NCBI RefSeq assembly: GCF_965214065.1 | Contig: NZ_CBDCAT010000026.1 | Span: 180,922-244,921, forward strand | Source: Candidatus Poriferisocius sp. | GTDB taxonomy: Bacteria; Actinomycetota; Acidimicrobiia; Acidimicrobiales; Bin134 | Direction: 5' to 3' | Length of the DNA stretch: 64,000 nucleotides | Shown: piece after piece, positions 5,792-59,678 of the stretch | Position numbering within the stretch: position 1 is the stretch's first letter | Layout of the letters: the number at the start of each line of letters is the position of its first letter | Position numbers and translations under genes: made by a program | The notes under the pieces: model-generated | Database searches by the model: none | What the model was told of the DNA's origin: nothing | What the model saw: only the letters and a program-made list of their open reading frames with translations

Positions 5792-6616
5792 ATGAGCTTT
5801 CGACTGGCCAGCCGCGCCGGGCAGGCGGTGCTGTTGGATGGGGAGAACTATTGGGCGTTGGGGATCGCCCCGATGGAAGCCCTTGGCCGTCTCGATGACC
5901 TACACCGCCAATGGGCTAGTCGGGACACCCCCGATGGCCAGGTGAGCCCGTCTGAACTGGGACCGCCGGTGCCCGATCCCAAGCAGGTGTTCGCTTATGG
6001 GCTCAACTACCGCGACCACATCGAGGAGATGGACGAGGTGGATTATCTGGGCCGCACCTCCAACGAGGCGCCAGTGGTGTTCACCAAGTTCCCCAACTGC
6101 CTGGTCGGCCCGGCCGCACCGGTCAAGCTTGTGGGCGACCACTGCGACTACGAGTGCGAGCTGGTGGTGGCAATCGGGGCCGAGACCAGGAACATCGACG
6201 AGACCCAAGCCTGGGACCGGGTAGCCGGTCTGATGATCGGCCAGGACATATCCGACCGGGCCCTCCAAGTTGCGGCCACCCCGCCGCAGTTCAACCTGGG
6301 CAAGTCCCGGGAGTCCTTCGGCCCCACTGGCCCCGCTCTAGTGAGCCCCGACCTAGTGGACAACCCCGACGATCTGGCCATCTCCTGTCGCATCAACGGC
6401 GAGCTGCGCCAAAACAGCCGCACCAGCTACCTCATTCGCCCCGTAGCCGAAATCGTCGCCTACTTGTCGTCGATCCTCACTCTGCACCCGGGCGACCTCA
6501 TCTTCACCGGTACTCCCGGCGGCGTCGGTCAGGCCTTGGGCCTCTACTTGAAGCCGGGCGATGTAATCCTCTCCGAGATCGAAGGCCTCGGCACGCTGGA
6601 GAACACCTGCGTATAG
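5792..6616 (+). CDS. fumarylacetoacetate hydrolase (FAH) family protein
   Basis: DYECELVVAIG, GQDISDR and LHPGDLIFTGTPGGVG motifs. A GGAG-type RBS lies upstream. Confidence 0.85.
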   Translation: MSFRLASRAGQAVLLDGENYWALGIAPMEALGRLDDLHRQWASRDTPDGQVSPSELGPPVPDPKQVFAYGLNYRDHIEEMDEVDYLGRTSNEAPVVFTKFPNCLVGPAAPVKLVGDHCDYECELVVAIGAETRNIDETQAWDRVAGLMIGQDISDRALQVAATPPQFNLGKSRESFGPTGPALVSPDLVDNPDDLAISCRINGELRQNSRTSYLIRPVAEIVAYLSSILTLHPGDLIFTGTPGGVGQALGLYLKPGDVILSEIEGLGTLENTCV

Positions 6617-41713: not shown

Positions 41714-42882
41714 GACACGATTCCGCCCCCCCCGAACCGATCACCTCTCGGCGCAAGCTGGCGGCGGTGGTGGCCGATGCCGCGGCCGCCGAAGCCTATG
41801 CCCTGGACACCGAGTTCCACCGCGAGCGCACCTACTACCCCAGGGTGGCACTGGTTCAAATCGCCTGGCGGGACCAGCTGGCCATCATCGACCCGCTGGA
41901 AGCGCCCATCGCAGGGCTGACCGAGCTGCTGGAGGGAGGGGGCCTGGCGGTGCTCCATGCCGCCGAGCAAGACCTAGAAGTTCTCCAACACGAGTGCGGC
42001 ACGCAACCCCGCCGCATATTCGACACCCAGATCGGGGCAGGATTCATCGGATACCACACTCCATCGCTGGCCTCGCTTCATGAGCGCCTGCTGGGAGTGG
42101 ACCTGCCCAAAGAAGCCCGCATGTCCGACTGGTTCCAAAGACCGCTGCCCGATTCCATGCTGACCTACGCCGCGGCCGACGTGGAGCGCTTGTTGGAGAT
42201 CAGCGACATACTGCACCAGGAGCTGCGGGCCCGGGGGCGCCTGGAATGGGCCGAAGAGGAGTGCGCCCTCTTGCTGGAGCGGGCCGACGCAGGGCGGACC
42301 TCCGACAAGGCGTGGCTCCGGATCAAAGAGGTCCGCCGCATGGAGGGCCGGCCCCGGGCACTGGCCCAGGCGGTGGCCAAATGGCGGGAGGAATACGCCG
42401 CCCACATAAACCAGCCTGTTCGCCATATTCTGTCGGACTTGGGAGTGGCAGCGGTCGCCCAGCGCCTACCGCGAACACTCAGCCAGCTGCGGGACATCCG
42501 CGGCGTGGAACCGCGTAACCTCCGCAAGGGAGCGGACAAAGAACTGTTGGATTTCCTCGACCAGATTCGAGGCGCAGACCTCGAAATCGAGCCCCGCGAG
42601 AAAACGCCCAAACTGGATCCGTCTCTCAAGCCGGCGGTCAACCTCATCACCTCGTGGGCGGCCCAGCACGCCGCGGAAGCCGACCTCGACCCCACCCTGG
42701 TGGCCACCCGAAGCGATATCGAGGCACTGCTCCGGGGCGACCCGGCCTGCCGGGCGCTGAGGGGGTGGCGAGCCGATATCGTCGCGGCGCCTGTTCAACA
42801 GCTTTTGGACGGAACCGCGGCAGTAGCCTTCGACAGCCAAGGCAAACTGGTCTTGGAGGAGCGCTCGGGGCGCCCGATATAG
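41710..42882 (+). CDS. rnd: ribonuclease D
   Basis: …AYALDTEFHRERTYYPRVALVQIA…YAAADVERL… (DEDD 3'-5' exonuclease) plus an HRDC-like C-terminus. The TTG start overlaps the rhodanese stop. Confidence 0.8.
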   Translation: MRHDSAPPEPITSRRKLAAVVADAAAAEAYALDTEFHRERTYYPRVALVQIAWRDQLAIIDPLEAPIAGLTELLEGGGLAVLHAAEQDLEVLQHECGTQPRRIFDTQIGAGFIGYHTPSLASLHERLLGVDLPKEARMSDWFQRPLPDSMLTYAAADVERLLEISDILHQELRARGRLEWAEEECALLLERADAGRTSDKAWLRIKEVRRMEGRPRALAQAVAKWREEYAAHINQPVRHILSDLGVAAVAQRLPRTLSQLRDIRGVEPRNLRKGADKELLDFLDQIRGADLEIEPREKTPKLDPSLKPAVNLITSWAAQHAAEADLDPTLVATRSDIEALLRGDPACRALRGWRADIVAAPVQQLLDGTAAVAFDSQGKLVLEERSGRPI

Positions 42883-49551: not shown

Positions 49552-52158
49552 TTAGGTGTGTGCGGCGCGCAGCGCGGCTGTGGAGGCGGGGTCTAGGGCG
49601 AGGTAGCAGCCAAAGCTCTCGTGGTAGCCCCAGCTGACCTGGGCCAAAACGGTTTGGCGGTCGGCGGACTTCGCCACATCCACCGGCTCGGCGCCGAACT
49701 TGTGGTGGTCGAAGCACCGCTGGGCCGCCCCTGCGTCCCCGGCGGGGAACCCCTCGGGCGCCGCAGCGGCTTGGAGCACGCCCAAAGCGCCCTCATCGAG
49801 GGTGAGGTAGCAGCCGATGCTGTCGTGGTAGCCCCAGCTGAGCTGAGCCAACACAGCCTGACCGTCAGCGGACTTCGCCACATCCACCGGCTCAGCCCCG
49901 AACTTATGCACCCCAAAGCACAACTCCGCCGCGCCGCCGTCGCCGGTGTCTTCTTCGGTGTCGGTCGGGTCGGAAGCGCCGTCGCCGGTGTCTTCGGTGC
50001 CGCCGCCGGTCTCACCGGAAGCGTCGCCGTTGCCAGGTTCGGTGCCGCCGTCGCTGTCGTCTTCGATGTCAGTCGGATCAGATGCGCCGTCGCCAGGTTC
50101 GGTTTGGCCGGTGCTGTCTTGGTCGTCGCCAGGTTCGGTTTGGCCGGTGCTGTCTTGGTCGTCGCCAGGTTCGGTTTGGCCGGTGCTGTCTTGGTCGTCG
50201 CCAGGTTCGGTTTGGCCGGTGCTGTCTTGGTCGTCGCCGGTGTCGGAGGGGTCGTCGGTGGCGGTCTCGCCGGAATCGTCTTCGTCGGAGGTCCTGCTGA
50301 CATCGGTGGTGGTCTCGCCGCTGTCGGAAACAGTGACAGGCACCGTGGTTGTCCCACCCGACCCGACGGGTACTCCCTCCAAGGTTATCGACGTTGTCAC
50401 ACTGGGAGGTGTTAACTGGAGGCCCAAGATGTTACCCCAGCAGTCGATGGTTTGGTCGGCGGCGATGGCGCAGGCGTGGCTGCCGCCTGCGGCGATGGCG
50501 GTGTATTGGCCATCGGGCGCGTCGGTCTGCCCGTCACTGTTCCAGCCCCAGCAGTCGATGGTTTGGTCGGCGGCGATGGCGCAGGCGTGGCTGCCGCCTG
50601 CGGCGATGGCGGTGTACTGCCCGTCGGGCGCGTCCGCCCGGCCCTCCCCGTTGTTGCCCCAGCACTCGATGGTTTGGTCGGCGGCGATGGCGCAGGCGTG
50701 GCTGCCGCCTGCGGCGATGGCGGTGTATTGGCCATCGGGCGCGTCGGCCCGGCCGTACCAGCTGGAGCCCCAGCAGTCGATGGTCTGGTCGGCGGCGATG
50801 GCGCAGGTGTAGTCGCCGCCTGTGGCGATGGCGGTGTATTGGCCATCGGGCGCGTCGGTCTGGCCGACAGGGTTGAGGCCCCAGCAGTTGATGGTTTGGT
50901 CGGCGGCGATGGCGCAGGCGTGGTTGGCGCCTGCGGCGATGGCGGTGTATTGGCCATCGGGCGCGTCCGCCTGGCCGCTCCAGTTGCCACCCCAGCAGTC
51001 GATGGTTTGGTCGGCGGCGATGGCGCAGGCGTGGTCGTTGCTTGCGGCGATGGCGGTGTATTGGCCATCGCGCGGGTAGGTCTGGCCGTACCAGCTGCCG
51101 CCCCAGCAGTCGATGGTCTGGTCGGCGGCGATGGCGCAGGTGCGGTTGACGGCGGCAGTGATGGCGGTGTATCGGTCGTCGGTTGGGATATGCACTGTCA
51201 TTTGCCAGTCGTCTCCGGGGTAGAGGTCTTGCGCGGTGTGGGTCCCGTCGTCGCCGGTAGCAGCCTGGAAGAATCCTGTTCCTGTGGTGTAGAAGGGGCT
51301 GGGGGGCATCGACTGGTAGGGGTTCTGGGAGGTGATCCAGCCTGTGACGGGGATGCCTTGGAGGGGTTGGCCGTCGGCGTCGGCGACTGCAACGGTGATG
51401 CGTCCTGCCCGCAAAACTTCCACGGTGCCGGCGTTTGTGGTCTGGCCGGCGGCTACCTCGACTTCGGCGGCGGCGTTGTTGGCGAGGTGGCCTGCGCCGT
51501 GGTTGCCGTGGGCGATGCGGTAGGTGCCGGGGGGGACCGGCGGGGAGGTGAACTCGCCGGTCTGGAGGTCGACGTCGAGCAGCCAGTCACCGCTGCCCCA
51601 TAGCGCGTAGTCTCCGTCGGGGGGAGGCCCGCCGTCGGAGCCCGTGAACCGGCCCGACACCCGGCCGCCGGCCTCGAGCTCGACGTCGATGCCTGACAGC
51701 GACTCCCAACTCCACAGTTGCTCATAGCCGTAGCCGTCGATGAAGCGGGTAGCGAGGTTTGCGCTGCGGTCCCAGACCATCAGCGTCAGGTTTTCCAGGT
51801 TTTCGCCTCTTGTGACGGTCACCGACCACCGGCCCGAGCTGTCGACTCCGGTCTCGGCGAGGTACACTACCGAATACCCCTCCAGCGGCCGGGGGCGTTG
51901 GGAGCCGTCATCGGCCAGCCCGGCCGCGCACTCCCCCCAGCATCCCGCCACCACCGTGACCGCCACATCGGCGGTCGACACGCCGCTCGGGGCGGCGACA
52001 GTGCCGCTGAAGGTGGCCGCGCTGTCCTGCGCCGCAGCCGGCCCGGCCGCAGAAGACCCCAGCAAAGCAGCCACCAGCGCGACGGCCACCAACAACGCGG
52101 CCCTCATACTGCCTGCGGCCCCGCTGGTGTTTGCCGGCGACTCGCTATAACAGAACAT
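49552..52158 (-). CDS. secreted multidomain protein: signal peptide, beta-sandwich (carboxypeptidase-regulatory-like) domains, 7-bladed short RCC1-like propeller, acidic linker, two C-terminal two-Cys modules
   Basis: AGGAG RBS 8 nt before the ATG at 52158. Signal peptide …MRAALLVAVALVAALLGSSAAGPAAAQD. Seven repeats of DGQYTAIAAG..H.CAIAADQTIDCWG.N..GQ.DAP. A D/E/T/G-rich linker. C-terminal 2x CF.HHKFGAEPVDVAKSAD.Q.VLAQ.SWGYH.S.GCYL.LD. Confidence 0.85.
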   Translation of the reverse strand: MFCYSESPANTSGAAGSMRAALLVAVALVAALLGSSAAGPAAAQDSAATFSGTVAAPSGVSTADVAVTVVAGCWGECAAGLADDGSQRPRPLEGYSVVYLAETGVDSSGRWSVTVTRGENLENLTLMVWDRSANLATRFIDGYGYEQLWSWESLSGIDVELEAGGRVSGRFTGSDGGPPPDGDYALWGSGDWLLDVDLQTGEFTSPPVPPGTYRIAHGNHGAGHLANNAAAEVEVAAGQTTNAGTVEVLRAGRITVAVADADGQPLQGIPVTGWITSQNPYQSMPPSPFYTTGTGFFQAATGDDGTHTAQDLYPGDDWQMTVHIPTDDRYTAITAAVNRTCAIAADQTIDCWGGSWYGQTYPRDGQYTAIAASNDHACAIAADQTIDCWGGNWSGQADAPDGQYTAIAAGANHACAIAADQTINCWGLNPVGQTDAPDGQYTAIATGGDYTCAIAADQTIDCWGSSWYGRADAPDGQYTAIAAGGSHACAIAADQTIECWGNNGEGRADAPDGQYTAIAAGGSHACAIAADQTIDCWGWNSDGQTDAPDGQYTAIAAGGSHACAIAADQTIDCWGNILGLQLTPPSVTTSITLEGVPVGSGGTTTVPVTVSDSGETTTDVSRTSDEDDSGETATDDPSDTGDDQDSTGQTEPGDDQDSTGQTEPGDDQDSTGQTEPGDDQDSTGQTEPGDGASDPTDIEDDSDGGTEPGNGDASGETGGGTEDTGDGASDPTDTEEDTGDGGAAELCFGVHKFGAEPVDVAKSADGQAVLAQLSWGYHDSIGCYLTLDEGALGVLQAAAAPEGFPAGDAGAAQRCFDHHKFGAEPVDVAKSADRQTVLAQVSWGYHESFGCYLALDPASTAALRAAHT
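50092..50235 (-). repeat. 4 x 36-bp perfect in-frame tandem repeat (encodes DDQDSTGQTEPG x4)
   Basis: Plus strand gccaggttcggtttggccggtgctgtcttggtcgtc occurs four times head-to-tail. Confidence 0.9.
50424..51177 (-). repeat. array of 7 RCC1-like blade repeats (~114-117 nt each) with long near-identical nucleotide stretches
   Basis: Recurrent cagcagtcgatggt(t/c)tggtcggcggcgatggcgcagg(c/t)gtgg… motif. Alternate-frame track ORFs here are periodic artefacts of it. Confidence 0.85.
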
Positions 52159-52211
52159 GGCGGGAACTCTCCTGAAAAAGGCGGGCACTGACGGCCATCA
52201 TGGTCGTACAA

Positions 52212-52225
52212 CCCCCCCCCCCCCC
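52212..52225 (-). repeat. G14 homopolymeric tract (C14 on the plus strand), 53 nt upstream of the 52158 start codon
   Basis: Plus strand …tacaa-cccccccccccccc-gcaaatctg… counted directly as 14 nt. Confidence 0.95.
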
Positions 52226-52258
52226 GCAAATCTGCGTACGGGCGTCAGCGGCCAGCGC
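52226..52258 (-). promoter_or_regulatory. conserved 33-nt element abutting the G14 tract (copy 1)
   Basis: gcaaatctgcgtacgggcgtcagcggccagcgc is identical to 56445-56477. Similarity is lost beyond it. Confidence 0.6.
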
Positions 52259-52419
52259 CTTGCCGTTGGCGCAGCACTTCGAGGTTGTCGACCGATGTGG
52301 GCCCGCCGGGCAAAAGCCATTGGGCCCGTAGCCAGTCGGACTCTGCTGACACGAAGTCGCCCAAGTTGAAGCAGGCGGCGCCCCGCTTGCTGAAAACCCG
52401 ATTCGAGCCAGTGCGCGCG

Positions 52420-55400
52420 CTAGGTGTGCGCGGCGCGCAGCGCGGCTGTGGCGGCGGGGTCTAGGGCGAGGTAGCAGCCGAAGCTCTCGTGGTAGCCCCA
52501 GCTGACCTGGGCCAAAACGGTTTGGCGGTCGGCGGACTTCGCCACATCCACCGGCTCGACCCCGAACTTGTGGTGGCCGAAGCACCGCTGGGCCGCCCCC
52601 GCGTCCCCGGCGGGGAACCCCTCGGGCGCCGCAGCATCTTGGAGCACGCCCAAAGCGGCCTCATCGAGGGTGAGGTAGCAGCCGATGCTGTCGTGGAAAC
52701 CCCAGCTGAGCTGAGCCAACACAGCCTCGCCGTCAGCAGACTTCGCCACATCCACCGGCTCAGCCCCGAACTGGTGCACTGCGAAGCAACGCTCCGCCGC
52801 ACCATCGTCTTCGGGTTCAGCCTCGCCGGAGTCTTTGCCCCCGTCTTCGGGTTCGGCCTCGCCGGAGCCCTCGCCCCCGTCTTCGGGTTCAGCCTCGCCC
52901 GAGGGGTCGCCGGTGTCGGTCTCGCCGGAGGGGTCGCCATCGCCTTCGGTTTCAGTACCGCCGGAGCCCTCGCCGCCGCCGGTGTTGGAGGGATCGTCGG
53001 TGTCGGTCTCGTCGGAAGCGCTGTCGCCGGAGGTCCTGCTGACGTCGGTGGTGGTCACGCCGCTGTCGGAAACGGTGATATGCACTGTGGTTGTCCCTCC
53101 CGACCCGACGGCTACTCCCTCCAACTCCAAGGTTGTCGAATCGATGGGTGTTGCCTGGCCGTCTCTGTTATAGCCCCAGCAGTCGATGGTGTTGTCGACG
53201 GTTATGGCGCACGAGTGGGAGTAGTCGGCGGCGATTTGGGTGTATTGCCCGTCAGGCGCGTCGGCCTGGCCGTAGTCGTTTTCGCCCCAGCAGTTGACTG
53301 TGTTGTCGACGGCGATGGCGCACGAGTAGCCGTCGCCGGCGGAGATTGCGGTGTATTGCCCGTCGGGCGCATCCGCCCGGCCGTCGTCGTTGTAGCCCCA
53401 GCAGTCGATGGTGTTGTCGACGGCGATGGCGCACGAGTAGCCGGTGCCGGCGGCAATTGCGGTGTATTGCCCGTCAGGCGCATCCGCCTGGCCCGCCCCG
53501 TTGTAGCCCCAGCAGTCGATGGTGTTGTCGGCTGCGATGGCGCAGGTGTGGTCCCAGCCGGCTGCGATGGCGGTGTATTGCCCGTCAGGCGCATCCGCCT
53601 GGCCCTCCCCGTTGTAGCCCCAGCAGTCGATGGTCTGGTCGGCGGCGATGGCGCACAAGTAGCCGTTGCCGGCGGCAATTGCGGTGTATTGCCCGTCAGG
53701 CGCATCCGCCTGGCCGGCAGGGTTGAGGCCCCAGCAGTCGATGGTTTGGTCGGCGGCGATGGCGCAGGAGTGGTCATCGCCGGTTGCGATGGCGGTGTAT
53801 TGCCCGTCGGGCGCGTCGGCCCGGCCGCTGCCGTTGTAGCCCCAACAGTCGATGGTGTTGTCGGCGGCGATTGCGCAGGAGTGGGATTGGCCGGTGGCGA
53901 TGGCGGTGTATTGTCCGTCGGTTGGGAGCTTCATTATGATTCGCCAGTCGTCTCCGGGATAGAGGTTTTGCGCGGTGTAGGCCCCGTCGTCGCCGGTAGC
54001 GGCCCCGAAGACTCCTGTTCCTGTGGTGTTGTAGAAGGGGCTGGAGGGCATCATCTGGTAGGGGTTCTGGAAGGTGACTCCGCCTGAGACGGGGATGCCT
54101 TGGAGGGCTTGGCCGTCGCTGTGGGCGATTGAGACGATTATCTGGCCGGGCTGTTGGACTCGAACGGTGCCGGCGTCTGCGGTCTGGCCGGCGGCGATTT
54201 CGATTCGGGCCGCGTCGTTGTTGGCGAGGTGGCCGCCGCCGTGGTTGCCGTGGGCGAGGCTGTACTCGCCGGGGGCCACGATTGGGGAGGTGAACACCCC
54301 GGTTTGCGGGTCGACGTCGAGGTCGAGCAGCCAGTCACCACTGCCCCATCCCCATAGCGCGTAGTCTCCGGGCGGCGGAGGCCCGCCATCGGAACCTGTG
54401 AACCGGCCCGATGCCCGGCCGCCGGTGTCGGAGGGGTCGTCGGTGGCGGTCTCGTCGGAATCGCCGTCGCCGCCGGCCTGCCCACCGCTACAGACGAGTT
54501 CTGGTTCCCCATTCCATGCCACAGTGCAATCAACGGTTCCGCCGGGGGCGACGGCTATCCCCTCCGCCGAGGCGTCAAAGACCGGCACAGGCACATTGGC
54601 CTGGCCGTACCTGTTGTTGCCCCAGCAGTCGATGGTGTTGTCGGCGGCGATGGCGCAGGCGTGGACGCCGCCGGCGGAGATTGCGGTGTATTGCCCGTCG
54701 GGCGCGTCGGCCTGGCCGTATTCGTTGTTGCCCCAGCAGTTGATGGTGTGGTCGGCGGCGATGGCGCAGGCGCCGCCGGCGGAGATTGCGGTGTATTGTC
54801 CATCGGGCGCGTCGTATTGTCCATCGGGCGCGTCGGCCTGGCCAAAGAAGTCGTAGCCCCAACAGTCGATGGTCTGGTCTACGGCGATGGCGCAGGAGCT
54901 GCCGGCGGAGATTGCGGTGTATTGCCCGTCGGGCGCGTCGGTCTGGCCAAAGAAGTCGTAGCCCCAGCAGTCGATGGTTTGGTCGGCGGCGATGGCGCAA
55001 GCGTGTAGGTGACCTGCGGCGATGGCGGTGTATTGCCCGTCGGGCGCGTCGGCCTGGCCGCTGCTGTTGTAGCCCCAGCAGTCGATGGTTTGGTCGGCGG
55101 CGATGGCGCAGGCGTGGTCGCCGCCGGCGGAGATTTCGGTGTAGTGCCCGTCGGGCGCGTCGGTCTGGCCGGAGTAGTTGTTGCCCCAACAGTCGATGGT
55201 GTAGTCGGCGGCGATGGCGCAGGTGTGGTCGCCGCCGGCGGAGATTTCGGTGTATTGCCCGTCGGGCGCATCGGCCTGCCCGTATTCGTTGTTGCCCCAG
55301 CAGTCTATGGTCTGGTCGGCGGCGATGGCGCAAGTGTGGGCGGAGCCGGTGGTGATGGCGGTGTATTGCTGTGGGATTGCGATGTTCGTTTCGATTTGCC

Positions 55401-56379
55401 AGTCGCCGGGGTACAGGTTTTGCGTGGTGTGGGTTCCGTCGTCGCCGGTGGCGGCCCAGAAGTATCCTGTTCCGCTGGTGCCGAAGGGGCTGCCGGGCAT
55501 GGACCAGTAGGGGTTTTGGGAGGATATTTCGCCTGACACGGCGACTCCTTGGAGGGGTTGGCCGTCGGCGTCGGCGATCGCGACGGTTATGCGGCCGGCC
55601 TGTTGGATTTGCACGGTGCCGGCGTCTGCGGTCTCGCCGGCGGCTACCTCGACTTCGGCGGCGGCGTTGTGGCCGAGGAAGCCTTCGCCGTGGTAGGCGT
55701 GGGCGATGCGGTGGGTGCCGGGGGGGACCGGCGGGGAGGTGAACTCGCCGGTTTGGGGGTCGACGTCGAGCAGCCAGTCGCCGCTGCCCCATAGCGCGTA
55801 GTCGCCGCCGGGCGGAGGCCCGCCATCAGACGTGGAGAACCGGCCCGACACCCAGCCGCCGGCCTCGAGCTCGACATCGGCGTCGCCGATGTCGACATCG
55901 CCGAACTCGACGCCCCCCCAGGGATCCCAAACGAAGTAATAACGGGGAGCGAGCACACCGCCCTCATCCCAAACCAGCAGATTCACATGACTCACACGCT
56001 GGCTTTGCGGCTCCGCCACGGTCATCGACCACCGGCCCGAGCTGTCCACCCCAGCCTCGCCGAGGAACTCCACCGCCTCCAAAGGCCGCGGGCGCCCGGC
56101 GGAACCCTCGGTCTGCCCCCCGCCATCGCAGCCGCCCCAGCAGAAAGCCACCACCGACACAACCACACCGTCCGTGGACACACCCACAGGAGCAGAGACC
56201 GTCCCGCCCAAAGACGCCATAGCGGACTGCGCCGCAGCCGGATCGTCCTGCGCCGCAGCCGGCCCGACCGCAGAAGACCCCAACAAAGCCGCCACCAGCG
56301 CAACCGCCACCAACAACGCAGCCCTCCCGCGCGTTGCCCTCCTCGCGGGGTGGTGCGGCGACAAGCTGTCTTGGTTCAT
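52420..56379 (-). CDS. secreted multidomain protein, paralog of 49552-52158 with an internally duplicated (beta-sandwich + 7-blade propeller) unit, acidic linker and two C-terminal two-Cys modules
   Basis: GAGGAGG RBS 9 nt before the ATG at 56379. Signal peptide …RGRAALLVAVALVAALLGSSAVGPAAAQDD. Two separate arrays of seven RCC1-like blades. The C-terminus is near-identical to that of the paralog. Confidence 0.85.
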   Translation of the reverse strand: MNQDSLSPHHPARRATRGRAALLVAVALVAALLGSSAVGPAAAQDDPAAAQSAMASLGGTVSAPVGVSTDGVVVSVVAFCWGGCDGGGQTEGSAGRPRPLEAVEFLGEAGVDSSGRWSMTVAEPQSQRVSHVNLLVWDEGGVLAPRYYFVWDPWGGVEFGDVDIGDADVELEAGGWVSGRFSTSDGGPPPGGDYALWGSGDWLLDVDPQTGEFTSPPVPPGTHRIAHAYHGEGFLGHNAAAEVEVAAGETADAGTVQIQQAGRITVAIADADGQPLQGVAVSGEISSQNPYWSMPGSPFGTSGTGYFWAATGDDGTHTTQNLYPGDWQIETNIAIPQQYTAITTGSAHTCAIAADQTIDCWGNNEYGQADAPDGQYTEISAGGDHTCAIAADYTIDCWGNNYSGQTDAPDGHYTEISAGGDHACAIAADQTIDCWGYNSSGQADAPDGQYTAIAAGHLHACAIAADQTIDCWGYDFFGQTDAPDGQYTAISAGSSCAIAVDQTIDCWGYDFFGQADAPDGQYDAPDGQYTAISAGGACAIAADHTINCWGNNEYGQADAPDGQYTAISAGGVHACAIAADNTIDCWGNNRYGQANVPVPVFDASAEGIAVAPGGTVDCTVAWNGEPELVCSGGQAGGDGDSDETATDDPSDTGGRASGRFTGSDGGPPPPGDYALWGWGSGDWLLDLDVDPQTGVFTSPIVAPGEYSLAHGNHGGGHLANNDAARIEIAAGQTADAGTVRVQQPGQIIVSIAHSDGQALQGIPVSGGVTFQNPYQMMPSSPFYNTTGTGVFGAATGDDGAYTAQNLYPGDDWRIIMKLPTDGQYTAIATGQSHSCAIAADNTIDCWGYNGSGRADAPDGQYTAIATGDDHSCAIAADQTIDCWGLNPAGQADAPDGQYTAIAAGNGYLCAIAADQTIDCWGYNGEGQADAPDGQYTAIAAGWDHTCAIAADNTIDCWGYNGAGQADAPDGQYTAIAAGTGYSCAIAVDNTIDCWGYNDDGRADAPDGQYTAISAGDGYSCAIAVDNTVNCWGENDYGQADAPDGQYTQIAADYSHSCAITVDNTIDCWGYNRDGQATPIDSTTLELEGVAVGSGGTTTVHITVSDSGVTTTDVSRTSGDSASDETDTDDPSNTGGGEGSGGTETEGDGDPSGETDTGDPSGEAEPEDGGEGSGEAEPEDGGKDSGEAEPEDDGAAERCFAVHQFGAEPVDVAKSADGEAVLAQLSWGFHDSIGCYLTLDEAALGVLQDAAAPEGFPAGDAGAAQRCFGHHKFGVEPVDVAKSADRQTVLAQVSWGYHESFGCYLALDPAATAALRAAHT
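53147..53920 (-). repeat. RCC1-like blade array (7 repeats), C-terminal propeller of the 1319-aa protein
   Basis: GQYTAIA.G…CAIA.DNTIDCWGYN..G.ADAP repeated seven times. Confidence 0.85.
54590..55373 (-). repeat. RCC1-like blade array (7 repeats), N-terminal propeller of the 1319-aa protein
   Basis: QQYTAITTGSAHTCAIAADQTIDCWGNNEYGQADAP… repeated seven times, including two blades with shortened loops (SAGSSCAIA, SAGGACAIA). Confidence 0.85.
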
Positions 56380-56430
56380 GGCTGGGGCCTCCTCAAAGCA
56401 CAGGGCTCGCTACCCCACATTGGTCTACTG

Positions 56431-56444
56431 CCCCCCCCCCCCCC
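56431..56444 (-). repeat. G14 homopolymeric tract (C14 on the plus strand), 51 nt upstream of the 56379 start codon
   Basis: Plus strand …ctactg-cccccccccccccc-gcaaatctg… counted directly as 14 nt. Confidence 0.95.
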
Positions 56445-56477
56445 GCAAATCTGCGTACGGGCGTCAGCGGCCAGCGC
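56445..56477 (-). promoter_or_regulatory. conserved 33-nt element abutting the G14 tract (copy 2)
   Basis: Identical to 52226-52258. Confidence 0.6.
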
Positions 56478-56479
56478 TC

Positions 56480-56774
56480 TGGTGTTGGCTTGGTGACTGA
56501 ATAGCATGGCAGTGAACGTGCCGGTGGGGGGATCCGAAACACCCCTTCTCCATCCACGTTCATAGCGAGAGGTCCAGAATTCGTCCGCGCAGGTGATGGC
56601 ACCGTCGGTTTTGTGCCCGCACATGATCTCGGGACGGGAAGAGACCTCGGTGAATTGGCCGCTGAGGGTGTCAACTTGCAGCTTCCGTTGGAGGCTTAGT
56701 TGGATTCCGGTTTGGCCTCTGGGGGGAATGTGGGCCTTGTTGCTTATGTTCAGGTCATATCCAATTGATAACAA
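56480..56774 (-). pseudogene. degenerate fragment of an RCC1-like repeat gene (no credible start, no signal peptide)
   Basis: Track ORF 56376-56774 contains LSGQFTEVSSRPEIMCGHKTDGAITCADEFW…PPTGTFTAM. This resembles decayed copies of the blade consensus (GQYTxISxGxxHxCxxxxDxTIxCWG…PDGQYTAI) and runs into the 33-nt element and G tract. Confidence 0.35.
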
Positions 56775-56839
56775 GCATTATTCGCTTATTAACGTTTATT
56801 CGGGTAGTTGTTGTCACAGAGGTCGGTATACTTGCATGT

Positions 56840-58123
56840 ATGGAGTTTAGGCCTCTGGAACAGGGGAAACAGACTGGTCGAGCGCCTTCCAGGCCGGTTT
56901 GGCCGGAGGCGGCTGATGTGGCCGGGCTGTCGCTGTGCGAGCTGCGGGAGCGGCTGGGGCTGATCAAAAAAGCCGAGGCCCGGCTGGCGGCGATGAAAAC
57001 GGAGACATTGGCCGCCTATGCCAGCCGGGGAGGCGAGGGATTGGCCCGCCGGGTGGCGTTGGAGGAGTTGCAGGCTTCTAAGCAGCAGGCCCGCCGGGAA
57101 GTGGAGACCGCCTCCCAGTTCTCGCAGGTTCCCGAGACTCTCGACGCGCTGGGCGCGGGGGAGATTCCCGAGGCCCACGCCAAGCAGATCGCCAAGGCCG
57201 CATCCCAGGGGCCGGTTGACGAATCCGTGCTGGTGGAGGCGGCCCGGCGCGAGGACTTCGGAACGTTCTCCCGGACGCTTCGCGATCACCTGCATGAGCG
57301 GTCGGGCGACGATGGCAAGTCGTTGATGGCCAAGCAGCGGGAGCGCCGCTCCTTGAGCTTCTTCAAGTCTTCTGACGACGGCATGTTCATCTTGAACGGC
57401 CGGTTCGACCCGGTTGCGGGGAACCGGATCGAAGCGGCGCTGGCCGATGAGGTGCGCCGCCAGCGAAACGACAGCGACGCCGGTGATCTAACGGGGTTCG
57501 ACCAGCGGATGGCCGACGCGCTCGAGAATCTGGTCTGCGCCGACACCGGCGACCGCAAACCCCACGGCACCACACTGATATTGACGGCCGGGTGGGACGC
57601 GCTTAACCAGAAGCTGGCCGATGCCCGCCTGCTCGACGGCACACCCCTGCCGATTGACGAGGTCGTGAGACTGGCGTGCAACGCCGACATCGTGCCCGCC
57701 GTGTTCAATACCAAAGGCCAGGAACTGTGGGTAGGGCGCAAACACCGCTTGGCCACCGAAGCCCAAAGAGCCGCCCTTATCATCCGCGACAAACACTGCA
57801 TCGGCTGCGGACGATCAGCGGTGTGGTGCGAAGCCCACCACATTGAAGAATGGCTGAGCGGCGGACGCACCGACATCGACAACCTCGTTCTGGTCTGCAA
57901 AAGCTGCCACCACAACATCCACGACGACGGCTGGGTCGTGAGCAGAGACCGAAACGGCGCCTACGAACTACAACCACCACCTAGGCCCTACGCCGAATTC
58001 CCCTCTGGGCAGGCACGCTCAGGGCCATCCCTCGCCCGATCTCAATCCAATCCCGAAGCCTTTCCCGAAGTAGGCATCACCACCTGGCAGCCAAAAGAAT
58101 CCAGGCAGCTGCTATTGAGCTGA
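56840..58123 (+). CDS. HNH endonuclease with DUF222 N-terminal domain (REP13E12-like family)
   Basis: …LDALGAGEIPEAHAKQIA… (DUF222) and C-terminal …RDKHCIGCGRSAVWCEAHHIEEWLSGGRTDIDNLVLVCKSCHHNIHDDGW (HNH). Start at Met 56840, downstream of an AT-rich stretch. Confidence 0.85.
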   Translation: MEFRPLEQGKQTGRAPSRPVWPEAADVAGLSLCELRERLGLIKKAEARLAAMKTETLAAYASRGGEGLARRVALEELQASKQQARREVETASQFSQVPETLDALGAGEIPEAHAKQIAKAASQGPVDESVLVEAARREDFGTFSRTLRDHLHERSGDDGKSLMAKQRERRSLSFFKSSDDGMFILNGRFDPVAGNRIEAALADEVRRQRNDSDAGDLTGFDQRMADALENLVCADTGDRKPHGTTLILTAGWDALNQKLADARLLDGTPLPIDEVVRLACNADIVPAVFNTKGQELWVGRKHRLATEAQRAALIIRDKHCIGCGRSAVWCEAHHIEEWLSGGRTDIDNLVLVCKSCHHNIHDDGWVVSRDRNGAYELQPPPRPYAEFPSGQARSGPSLARSQSNPEAFPEVGITTWQPKESRQLLLS

Positions 58124-58166
58124 CACAGTGCTGGCGTGCCGACTAGCGGGGGTAGCATTGCCAGCC

Positions 58167-59678
58167 ATGCCCATGAAGTGGATGTGCCGTGCAATTCTCG
58201 TGGTCGCCTCTCTCGGCGCGGTGGCAGCAGTGCCCGCGGGTCCTGCCGTATCTCAGGGCGGCGCTGAGCCGAGCGCGGCGCAGCGGTGCTTTGAACACCA
58301 CAAATTCGGCGCTCAGCCCGTCGACGCGGCTAAAGCCGCCGACGGCCAAACCGTGTTGGCCCAGGTGAACTGGGGGTACCACGACAGCATCGGCTGCTAC
58401 CTCACCCTCGACGACACCGCGCTGGCCACCCTGCGAGCAGCGCCCGCCCCCAAAAACCTGCCCACTGCGGAAACCGAAGCGTCAAGACAGTGCTTCGAGC
58501 ACCACAAGTTCGGCCAACGCCCCGTCGATGTCGCCAAAACCACGGATCGCCAAACCGTCCTCGCCCGCCTCAGCTGGGGCTACCACGACAGTATCGGCTG
58601 CTACCTCACCCTCGACGACACCGCCCTAACTACTCTGCGAACCAACGCCCAACCCGAACCGACACCCGACCCGACTGTCAACCCGACCCCCGAACCGACA
58701 CCCGACCCGACTGTCAACCCGACCCCCGAACCGACACCCGACCCGACCCCCGAACCGACCCCGATTCCAGCCAGCAAGACCGGGACTGGATCAGACATCG
58801 TTGCAGTTGCACTCACCGAGGGCACCCACATAGTCGAGATTGAAGCGGCGGCAGCAACCGGACACCTCAGCGTAACCCTCAGCCAGGCGGGCTCACGATG
58901 CGACCTGCTCGTAAACGAGATCGTTGACGACCAAGGCGTGTGGACCGGACGCAAAGTGCTAAACGTCGGCGGGTTCGCCGGCTGCGAAACCGGCAACGCC
59001 GTAATCGAAGTGGATACCGAACCCGGCGCCCGATGGACCATCACCATCAACCCGACCCCCGAACCGACCCCGATTCCAGCCAGCAAGACCGGGACTGGAT
59101 CAGACATCGTTGCAGTTGCACTCACCGAGGGCACCCACATAGTCGAGATTGAAGCGGCGGCAGCAACCGGACACCTCAGCGTAACCCTCAGCCAGGCGGG
59201 CTCACGATGCGACCTGCTCGTAAACGAGATCGTTGACGACCAAGGCGTGTGGACCGGACGCAAAGTGCTAAACGTCGGCGGGTTCGCCGGCTGCGAAACC
59301 GGCAACGCCGTAATCGAAGTGGATACCGAACCCGGCGCCCGATGGACCATCACCATCAACCCGACCCCCGAACCGACCCCGATTCCAGCCAGCAAGACCG
59401 GGACTGGATCAGACATCGTTGCAGTTGCACTCACCGAGGGCACCCACATAGTCGAGATTGAAGCGGCGGCAGCAACCGGACACCTCAGCGTAACCCTCAG
59501 CCAGGCGGGCTCACGATGCGACCTGCTCGTAAACGAGATCGTTGACGACCAAGGCGTGTGGACCGGACGCAAAGTGCTAAACGTCGGCGGGTTCGCCGGC
59601 TGCGAAACCGGCAACGCCGTAATCGAAGTGGATACCGAACCCGGCGCCCGATGGACCATCACCATAGGCGGCGAGTGA
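58167..59678 (+). CDS. secreted protein: signal peptide, two N-terminal two-Cys modules, Pro/Thr linker, three identical 103-aa domains
   Basis: MPMKWMCRAILVVASLGAVAAVPAGPAVSQG signal. 2x CFEHHKFG..PVD.AK..D.QTVLA..(S/N)WGYHDSIGCYLTLDD. PEPTPDPTVNPT linker. 3x (NPTPEPTPIPASKTGTGSDIVAVALTEGTHIVEIEAAAATGHLSVTLSQAGSRCDLLVNEIVDDQGVWTGRKVLNVGGFAGCETGNAVIEVDTEPGARWTITI). Confidence 0.8.
   Translation: MPMKWMCRAILVVASLGAVAAVPAGPAVSQGGAEPSAAQRCFEHHKFGAQPVDAAKAADGQTVLAQVNWGYHDSIGCYLTLDDTALATLRAAPAPKNLPTAETEASRQCFEHHKFGQRPVDVAKTTDRQTVLARLSWGYHDSIGCYLTLDDTALTTLRTNAQPEPTPDPTVNPTPEPTPDPTVNPTPEPTPDPTPEPTPIPASKTGTGSDIVAVALTEGTHIVEIEAAAATGHLSVTLSQAGSRCDLLVNEIVDDQGVWTGRKVLNVGGFAGCETGNAVIEVDTEPGARWTITINPTPEPTPIPASKTGTGSDIVAVALTEGTHIVEIEAAAATGHLSVTLSQAGSRCDLLVNEIVDDQGVWTGRKVLNVGGFAGCETGNAVIEVDTEPGARWTITINPTPEPTPIPASKTGTGSDIVAVALTEGTHIVEIEAAAATGHLSVTLSQAGSRCDLLVNEIVDDQGVWTGRKVLNVGGFAGCETGNAVIEVDTEPGARWTITIGGE
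58741..59665 (+). repeat. 3 x 309-bp tandem repeat, copies identical by eye, in frame
   Basis: Copies start at 58741, 59050 and 59359. Alternate-frame track ORFs recur at exactly 309-nt spacing (58940, 59249, 59558) with identical translations. Confidence 0.9.

Follow-up and report, generated by a model that had tools for sequence, protein, structure and literature searches.

Eukaryote-like repeat proteins abound in sponge symbionts, where they are believed to serve host recognition and the evasion of phagocytosis; to our knowledge, essentially nothing is known of how the expression of such proteins is controlled or varied, since the organisms are uncultivated. The locus described here comes from a metagenome-assembled genome of Candidatus Poriferisocius sp. 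(a sponge symbiont; the genus belongs to the Acidimicrobiia, Actinomycetota), and it raises this question in a specific form: why does a run of 14 guanines stand about 50 nt before each of two neighboring genes for secreted RCC1-repeat proteins, and could the length of this run matter to their expression? The reading that we favor, at a probability of roughly 45%, is that the poly-G run is a slippage-prone element in the promoter or leader of the secreted RCC1 genes, whose length would tune transcription. Throughout, "the window" denotes the whole 64,000-nt stretch of DNA that was analysed; the closest homologs of the window proteins are also named Candidatus Poriferisocius.

Both genes lie on the minus strand. 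Gene 1 (49552-52158) encodes a secreted RCC1_2-repeat protein of 868 aa. It starts with a signal-peptide-like stretch and a beta-sandwich region in its N-terminal part, continues with seven blades of 111 nt each and an acidic linker, and closes with two repeats at the C-terminus. Gene 2 (52420-56379) encodes a secreted RCC1_2-repeat protein of 1319 aa with two propeller modules, built on the same plan (signal-peptide-like start, beta-sandwich, RCC1_2 blade arrays, acidic linker, and two C-terminal repeats), and is a tandem paralog of gene 1 with 66% identity. By direct reading, the N-termini of gene 1 (MRAALLVAVALVAALLGSSAAGPAAAQD) and of its gene 2 counterpart look like Sec signal peptides, and both proteins carry RCC1_2 repeats; no locus related to the N-terminal 300 aa of gene 1 was found in the genome_contigs database. 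At the DNA level, the blades are 111-nt tandem repeats that are 83-86% mutually identical, and the acidic linker holds a 36-nt repeat in 4.4 copies that are 98% identical; blade and linker repeats together occupy 50088-50246, 50435-51172, 53153-53919, and 54814-55369. They indicate ongoing concerted evolution within and between the two genes.

On the minus strand, positions 52258-52212 read GCGCTGGCCGCTGACGCCCGTACGCAGATTTGC and then G14, that is, a 33-nt block (52226-52258) with GATTTGC as its 3' end, directly 5' of the first G14 homopolymer (52212-52225; C14 on the plus strand). The tract is followed by TTGTACGACCATGATGG, which leads on to AGGAGAG-TTCCCGCC-ATG. The tract ends 53 nt 5' of the gene 1 ATG (52158-52156), and the leader between them (52159-52211, minus strand) contains a weak -10-like GACCAT (52205-52200) and the Shine-Dalgarno sequence AGGAGAG (52167-52173). 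The same 47 nt, block plus tract, are repeated on the minus strand at 56477-56431, where the block (56445-56477) is identical to the first copy at 33/33 positions and the second tract (56431-56444), also G14, ends 51 nt 5' of the gene 2 ATG (56379-56377); the corresponding leader (56380-56430, minus strand) has the Shine-Dalgarno sequence GAGGAGG (56388-56394). The flanks are divergent, with 37 matching positions between the two tract-to-ATG leaders (53 vs. 51 nt; ~65-70% identity) and 21/42 matches in the 42 nt 5' of the block. An earlier note on this DNA had described the G14, the 33 nt, and the AGGAGAG-N8-ATG arrangement, as well as the repetition of the 33 nt plus G14 between divergent flanks before the paralog, and the window sequence agrees with it on all of these points.

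The tract is exceptional for its surroundings. The two G14 copies are jointly the longest runs in the window, the second-longest homopolymer being 8 nt, so that the note's estimate of 7-8 nt for the other runs was accurate; from base composition (65.5% G+C), only ~0.015 G/C runs of ≥14 nt would be expected in the window. Homopolymers of ≥8 nt are depleted overall, with three observed, one of them a C8 at 41726-41733, vs. ~11-12 expected by a hand calculation from base composition. The 33-mer occurs in two copies only within the 64-kb window with ≤3 mismatches allowed, and 0/100 shuffles matched, while the exact 21-mer GACGCCCGTACGCAGATTTGC has no match in the genome_contigs and metagenome_contigs databases. 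That an exceptional tract stands upstream of genes for secreted proteins, as had been proposed, is borne out. It is important to note that the two copies do not represent independent events because both are part of the tandem gene duplication.

What, then, is the 33-nt block? It had been taken for a conserved functional element, and the related loci point instead to the end of a neighboring gene. Just 3' of the gene 2 stop, and adjoining the block, lies a remnant of a Wzy_C/TPR (O-antigen-ligase-like) gene (52245-52394, minus strand), comprising the C-terminal 49 codons (FSKRGAACFNLGDFVSAESDWLRAQWLLPGGPTSVDNLEVLRQRQGAGR) and the stop; a tblastn search of the window with the Wzy_C/TPR protein of the related locus L003 recovers it at E=1e-9, with 52% identity over 46 aa. 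In the related loci L003, L005, and L007, the genes keep the order APH-Wzy_C-RCC1-CitMHS, and in L004 the order Wzy_C-RCC1. In an alignment of seven loci that covers the end of Wzy_C, the spacer, and the start of RCC1, positions 52258-52248 of the first copy correspond to the last Wzy_C codons (..AGR), 52247-52245 to the TGA stop, and 52244-52226 to the first 19 nt of the spacer; in the second copy, the TGA of a vestigial Wzy_C tail is found at 56466-56464. By orthology, the 33-nt block is thus made up of the four final codons of Wzy_C, its TGA, and the initial 19 nt of the ancestral spacer between Wzy_C and RCC1, and the same comparison shows, at the level of sequence, that the tract sits in an upstream region that the RCC1 genes inherit from this conserved intergenic spacer.

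Conservation across species within the block is confined to two heptamers, TGACGNC-N8-GAYTTGC, which are followed by the G-rich run. Within the window and the related loci, this pattern occurs only at the end of the Wzy_C gene, i.e., in L004, L007, and L009 and twice in the window. At the remaining 19 positions of the block, the window and L007 are identical at 8/19, compared with 19/19 between the two window copies. Checking related genomes for the 33 nt plus a G run, as the earlier note had advised, accordingly recovers the motif with a G-rich run at the Wzy_C end; the full 33 nt are not kept. A reading of the 33 nt as RCC1-blade coding sequence (ALAADARTQIC aligns with AIAADQTIECWG) was dropped because the relatives have the stop of Wzy_C and the spacer at the orthologous positions. 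Among the proteins compared, the Wzy_C protein most similar to the remnant in the window is P0132, and the homologs P0134 and P0136 end in ...AAGGGG and ...AIGGGG, respectively, which suggests that the G run abuts or enters the Wzy_C frame there. Three further cluster members (P0121, P0122, and P0125) turned out to be unrelated short peptides.

The contexts 5' of the block differ between the two copies: the first follows the Wzy_C remnant, and the second follows a degenerate remnant of two RCC1 blades (56499-56678, minus strand), which marks a rearrangement boundary, and a divergent gene for a DUF222 plus HNH endonuclease protein (56765-58123, plus strand), which limits the upstream region of gene 2 to ~385 nt. 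An ORF that spans the blade remnant and runs through the second copy (56376-56774; 132 aa) matches gene 1 in blade register (BLASTP E=2e-5) and has no Pfam family and no homolog in the protein database. The position of the DUF222/HNH gene beside the two-blade fragment suggests that the upstream region of gene 2 has been rearranged or truncated.

If the spacer is old, the run itself could still be an accident of one assembly. Under this explanation, the tract would have arisen from an error in base calling or polishing, or reads of one copy would have overwritten the other during polishing. The source is indeed a metagenome-assembled genome, no part of a consensus is less reliable than the length of its homopolymers, and the equal lengths of the two copies could stem from mis-mapped polishing reads. 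Against this stand the relatives. After the TTGC that ends the second heptamer, the window has G14 in both copies, L007 has G10AGGG, and L009 has GGAGGGGGGG (a GGAG7 run), so that two independent assemblies, from other samples, are G-rich at the orthologous position, which argues that the tract is real. The record names suggest that L007 is a long-read contig and L009 a short-read scaffold. Further, unique sequence flanks the tract on both sides in both copies, and a perfect threefold repeat of 309 nt is resolved nearby, which suggests long, accurate reads. Hence, we consider an artefact highly improbable.

The relatives also speak to how the run changes. L007 and L009 share 93% identity over 360 nt (their Wzy_C proteins are 89% identical), and the sole non-coding indel between them, of 4 nt, falls within the G run. 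In the more distant relatives, the sequence after TTGC is CGGGGTAGGAAGGG in L004, CGAGGAAAGGGG in L001, and CGGGCCGGG in L005, i.e., the runs are interrupted and differ in sequence. Except at this site, the longest run in ~102 kb of DNA from the relatives is 7 nt. Tract length at the orthologous site therefore differs between lineages or species (L007, L009, and the window) and is equal in the two window copies. Taken together, these comparisons mark the tract as genuine, fixed in position, and the local indel hot spot. The slippage-prone character claimed for it is in line with the differences in length and purity among the relatives, which are typical of slippage. It should be noted that the run differences among L007, L009, and the window are evidence for slippage on an evolutionary scale and not for switching within a population. 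The sole match to the degenerate pattern in metagenome_contigs (L008) lies on an unrelated contig from soil, where a G8 follows an ORF that is M16-peptidase-like, and was taken as a chance hit.

The identity of the two copies requires an explanation of its own. At four-fold sites, genes 1 and 2 have diverged by 0.28 in the N-terminal domain and by 0.12 in the C-terminal region, and exact shared blocks of 35-78 nt are common between them. On its downstream side, the 47-nt patch of identity ends to the nucleotide where the G run ends, within flanks that are ~30% diverged. By sequence divergence, the paralogs are old (four-fold divergence of 0.28; 37 and 21 matches in the flanks), and 47 identical nucleotides are not what neutral divergence would leave behind, because the chance of identity for the block is 0.72^33, or ~2e-5, against this divergent background (for the variable positions, 0.72^19, or ~0.002). 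The earlier note had seen in the identity between divergent flanks an argument for selection over simple duplication. Recent homogenisation accounts for it better than purifying selection alone because 19 of the 33 positions vary between species, yet are identical here. That is, the 47-nt identity appears to fit a gene-conversion patch better than selection alone, and gene conversion, judging from the shared 35-78-nt blocks and the lower C-terminal divergence (0.12 vs. 0.28), is clearly active in the locus.

An active conversion process beside a G tract invites the possibility that the tract is the initiator, i.e., that the G run would act as a G-quadruplex (G4) or replication barrier that stalls synthesis and triggers template switching or conversion between the RCC1 paralogs, and would thereby make the propeller genes evolve in concert or diversify, in the manner of the G4 upstream of pilE in Neisseria. 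The precise end of the patch at the downstream edge of the tract would be expected in this case, and so would the different upstream contexts of the two copies (Wzy_C vs. RCC1-blade remnant), which put the tract beside rearrangement boundaries; homopolymer tracts likewise mark rearrangement sites in Cutibacterium acnes (PMC4746626). For G14, ViennaRNA with G4 parameters predicts a quadruplex of only two tetrads, and for the L009 run it predicts none. A canonical three-tetrad structure is out of reach of G14, which is one G short of GGG-N-GGG-N-GGG-N-GGG. The resemblance to the G4 of Neisseria gonorrhoeae pilE lies in a G-rich element 5' of a gene for a surface or secreted protein, beside a conversion boundary of paralogs; at pilE, the element is a three-tetrad G4 of defined sequence, 16 nt long, that has an sRNA promoter of its own (PMC3547852, PMC4412290), whereas G14 would form at best two tetrads and neither a promoter for an sRNA, an sRNA, nor an array of silent cassettes is evident here. 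In addition, the patch boundary is a single observation, and other conversion blocks lie within the genes where there is no G tract. We consider an initiating role of the tract very improbable.

A promoter was looked for around the tract. The earlier note had proposed a promoter of the form ATTTGC-N17-TACGAC; this arrangement finds no support, since a scan found no sigma-70 consensus promoter in either copy, the proposed -10 lacks the T at position 6, and the arrangement is absent in the relatives. A weak candidate is present in the first copy, with TTGCGG as the -35 (52229-52224, overlapping the first two G's of the tract), a spacer of 18 nt, and GACCAT (52205-52200) as the -10. Candidate counterparts are TTGCCG-N16-AACCAT in L001 and TTGCCG-N18-AACTAT in L004a, all three being located 41-47 nt 5' of the ATG, and the general form in the first window copy (W1), L001, and L004a would be TTGC(C/G)G, 16-18 nt, and nAC(C/T)AT. 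The arrangement fails in the second window copy (W2; GACCAA there) and in L003, L005, L007, and L009. The promoter of gene 2 must fall within the 385 nt that hold the block because there is no co-directional upstream gene, and this confinement lends mild support to a promoter role for the conserved patch.

The block could also serve the upstream gene (Wzy_C in the relatives, gene 2 in the window) as a terminator or structured RNA, since it starts at the Wzy_C stop and TGACGNC-N8-GAYTTGC is conserved there. This is extremely improbable: a search of 52050-52500 found no intrinsic terminator (GC-rich hairpin plus T run), the RNA fold of the block region is no more stable than that of shuffled sequences (z = +1.7 and +2.0), Rfam 15 assigns no family (the matches are chance-level, at 17 and 16 bits vs. 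thresholds of 200 and 49), and the block is kept where no Wzy_C gene remains.

How would a tract in this position come to tune expression? We propose that tandem duplication placed the spacer before both genes and that a short conversion event later equalised the copies over exactly 47 nt, up to where the tract ends downstream. Tract length would be altered by slipped-strand mispairing, and the changes would persist if mismatch repair is of the NucS type, which leaves 1-2 bp indels. NucS genes were found in relatives, and NucS does not repair indels of 1-2 bp (PMC11551767); long runs should be especially unstable in this clade for this reason. The tract would then either begin within the -35-like TTGCGG and fill the spacer or occupy the early leader, and shifts in its length would raise or lower the transcription of the downstream gene for the secreted RCC1 protein. 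The outcome would be a contingency-type volume or on/off control of a protein that interacts with the host. As judged from the features assembled above, a switch that regulates the genes through tract length, in promoter or leader, would be a plausible reading.

Several observations weigh against a switch. The 4-nt difference between L007 and L009 would leave at least one of the two promoters inactive if the run were the promoter spacer, and equal lengths in the window are unexpected for rapid switching unless the conversion is very recent or length is under selection. Moreover, tract variation in C. acnes follows phylogeny, which suggests slow accumulation and not active switching (PMC4746626). 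The main rival is a neutral mutational hot spot (the initiator, the artefact, and the terminator or RNA being lesser ones), in which a G-rich spacer slipped to a pure run, was duplicated, and was homogenised, with its length having no effect on expression. The interrupted and differing runs in L001, L004, and L005 imply that no precise sequence is needed, the L007/L009 difference appears to be tolerated, there is no promoter consensus, gene conversion is pervasive at the locus, and tract variation in C. acnes resembles slow accumulation. What such a hot spot leaves unexplained is that long runs are otherwise depleted (three of ≥8 nt in 64 kb, and ≤7 nt in ~102 kb of the relatives), yet reach 10-14 nt here in at least two lineages, that G-richness after TTGC is kept in every genome with the spacer, and that the block survives in both copies despite the loss of the Wzy_C gene. 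On balance, we regard neutrality as possible but unlikely. A stronger version of the length-tuning reading, namely that Candidatus Poriferisocius as a genus keeps a true contingency switch of high frequency at the Wzy_C-RCC1 spacer, one that turns the secreted eukaryote-like RCC1 propeller proteins up or down within symbiont populations and perhaps seeds conversion between the paralogs, is more doubtful still, and we would call it quite unlikely.

Length tuning of transcription by a homopolymer has well-known models. Promoter homopolymers cause phase variation of surface proteins at porA (poly-G) and opc (poly-C) of Neisseria meningitidis and at fim2/fim3 (poly-C) of Bordetella pertussis. As in these systems, the tract described here is a G/C run longer than 9 nt that lies tens of nucleotides 5' of a gene for a secreted or surface protein and starts at a -35-like hexamer (here a weak candidate), so that its length would set promoter geometry. 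The differences are that the host here is a Gram-positive-type symbiont of the Acidimicrobiia and theirs are proteobacterial pathogens, and that the present case is known from sequence alone, in which a slip-prone length (at least 8-9 nt) and a secreted product are both found.

Closer relatives provide further parallels, although the earlier note knew of no precedent in this kind of high-GC actinobacterium. C. acnes (formerly Propionibacterium acnes) has 54 variable tracts, almost all of them G/C and two thirds of them upstream of genes (Scholz et al. 2016, PMC4746626); among them are tracts within promoter spacers and tracts at sites of rearrangement, and their variation tracks lineages (PMC4746626). 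It shares with the present organism the phylum Actinomycetota and an intergenic G/C tract 5' of a gene. The C. acnes tracts are mostly shorter, and their variation was followed across 90 genomes and linked to transcript levels, compared to a few distant genomes here. In the Mycobacterium tuberculosis complex, homopolymers also show phase variation, and a 1-nt indel in an intergenic tract 5' of espA, ahead of a secretion-related operon, lowers espACD expression (Vargas et al. 2023, PMC10334774). The shared features in this case are a high-GC actinobacterium, NucS-type repair (here seen in relatives), and an intergenic tract; the M. tuberculosis complex tracts are 7-10 nt long, most of them act as frameshift switches inside genes, and the one before espA is poly-A, as opposed to a 14-nt poly-G in two paralogous copies. 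Like the variable tracts of these actinobacteria, the run described here exceeds 6 nt, is intergenic and 5' of a gene, and occurs in a lineage whose relatives have NucS-type repair. C. acnes (PMC4746626) and espA of the M. tuberculosis complex (PMC10334774) are, therefore, precedents. Our search of the full-text literature found nothing on phase variation in sponge symbionts or Poriferisocius.

From its sequence features, the tract is best described as a known kind of element, an apparently hypermutable intergenic G/C tract 5' of a secreted-protein gene in an actinobacterium; what appears to be new is the conservation of its position throughout a symbiont genus and its location at a gene-conversion boundary. 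A hypermutable tract before genes of this kind, at a genus-conserved position, would give a simple route to population heterogeneity in host-facing proteins and, if it is a true switch, would be the first contingency locus to be reported from the Acidimicrobiia and from any uncultivated sponge symbiont. If it is neutral, the locus would represent a tidy case of slippage together with gene conversion among tandem paralogs. On the practical side, the tract is the site of the least reliable consensus in a metagenome-assembled genome, and gene callers run on across it, which yields poly-Gly tails or spurious ORFs.

Finally, a few features of the neighborhood are of interest in their own right. A 309-nt tandem repeat is present in 3.0 copies with 100% matches at 58741-59665, inside a Pro/Thr-rich ORF of 516 aa (58128-59678, plus strand) that has only weak family matches; it represents either a very recent expansion or a sign of the assembly method. 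In the leaders, direct reading reveals an ATG right after the -10-like motif (..ACCATG..GGTCAGC) that is kept in W1, W2, L001, and L004a (window 52206-52150 and 56421-56377; L001 about 5950-6003). This ATG opens short upstream ORFs of 19 aa in W1, 14 aa in W2, and 4 aa in L004a; in L001, it shares the frame of the main ORF. An in-frame fusion of upstream ORFs to gene 1 or gene 2 by a change in tract length was also considered and rejected, given the stops between tract and ATG in the frame of the gene. L007 (5955-6000) and L009 (2251-2296) share a hairpin (AAGUCUUACAUGUAGGAC...GAAGGACUU) in which the Shine-Dalgarno region of the RCC1 gene is paired; neither window copy has it. The surrounding 116 nt in L009 fold somewhat better than shuffled sequences (z = -1.5), and the hairpin may be a translational control element.
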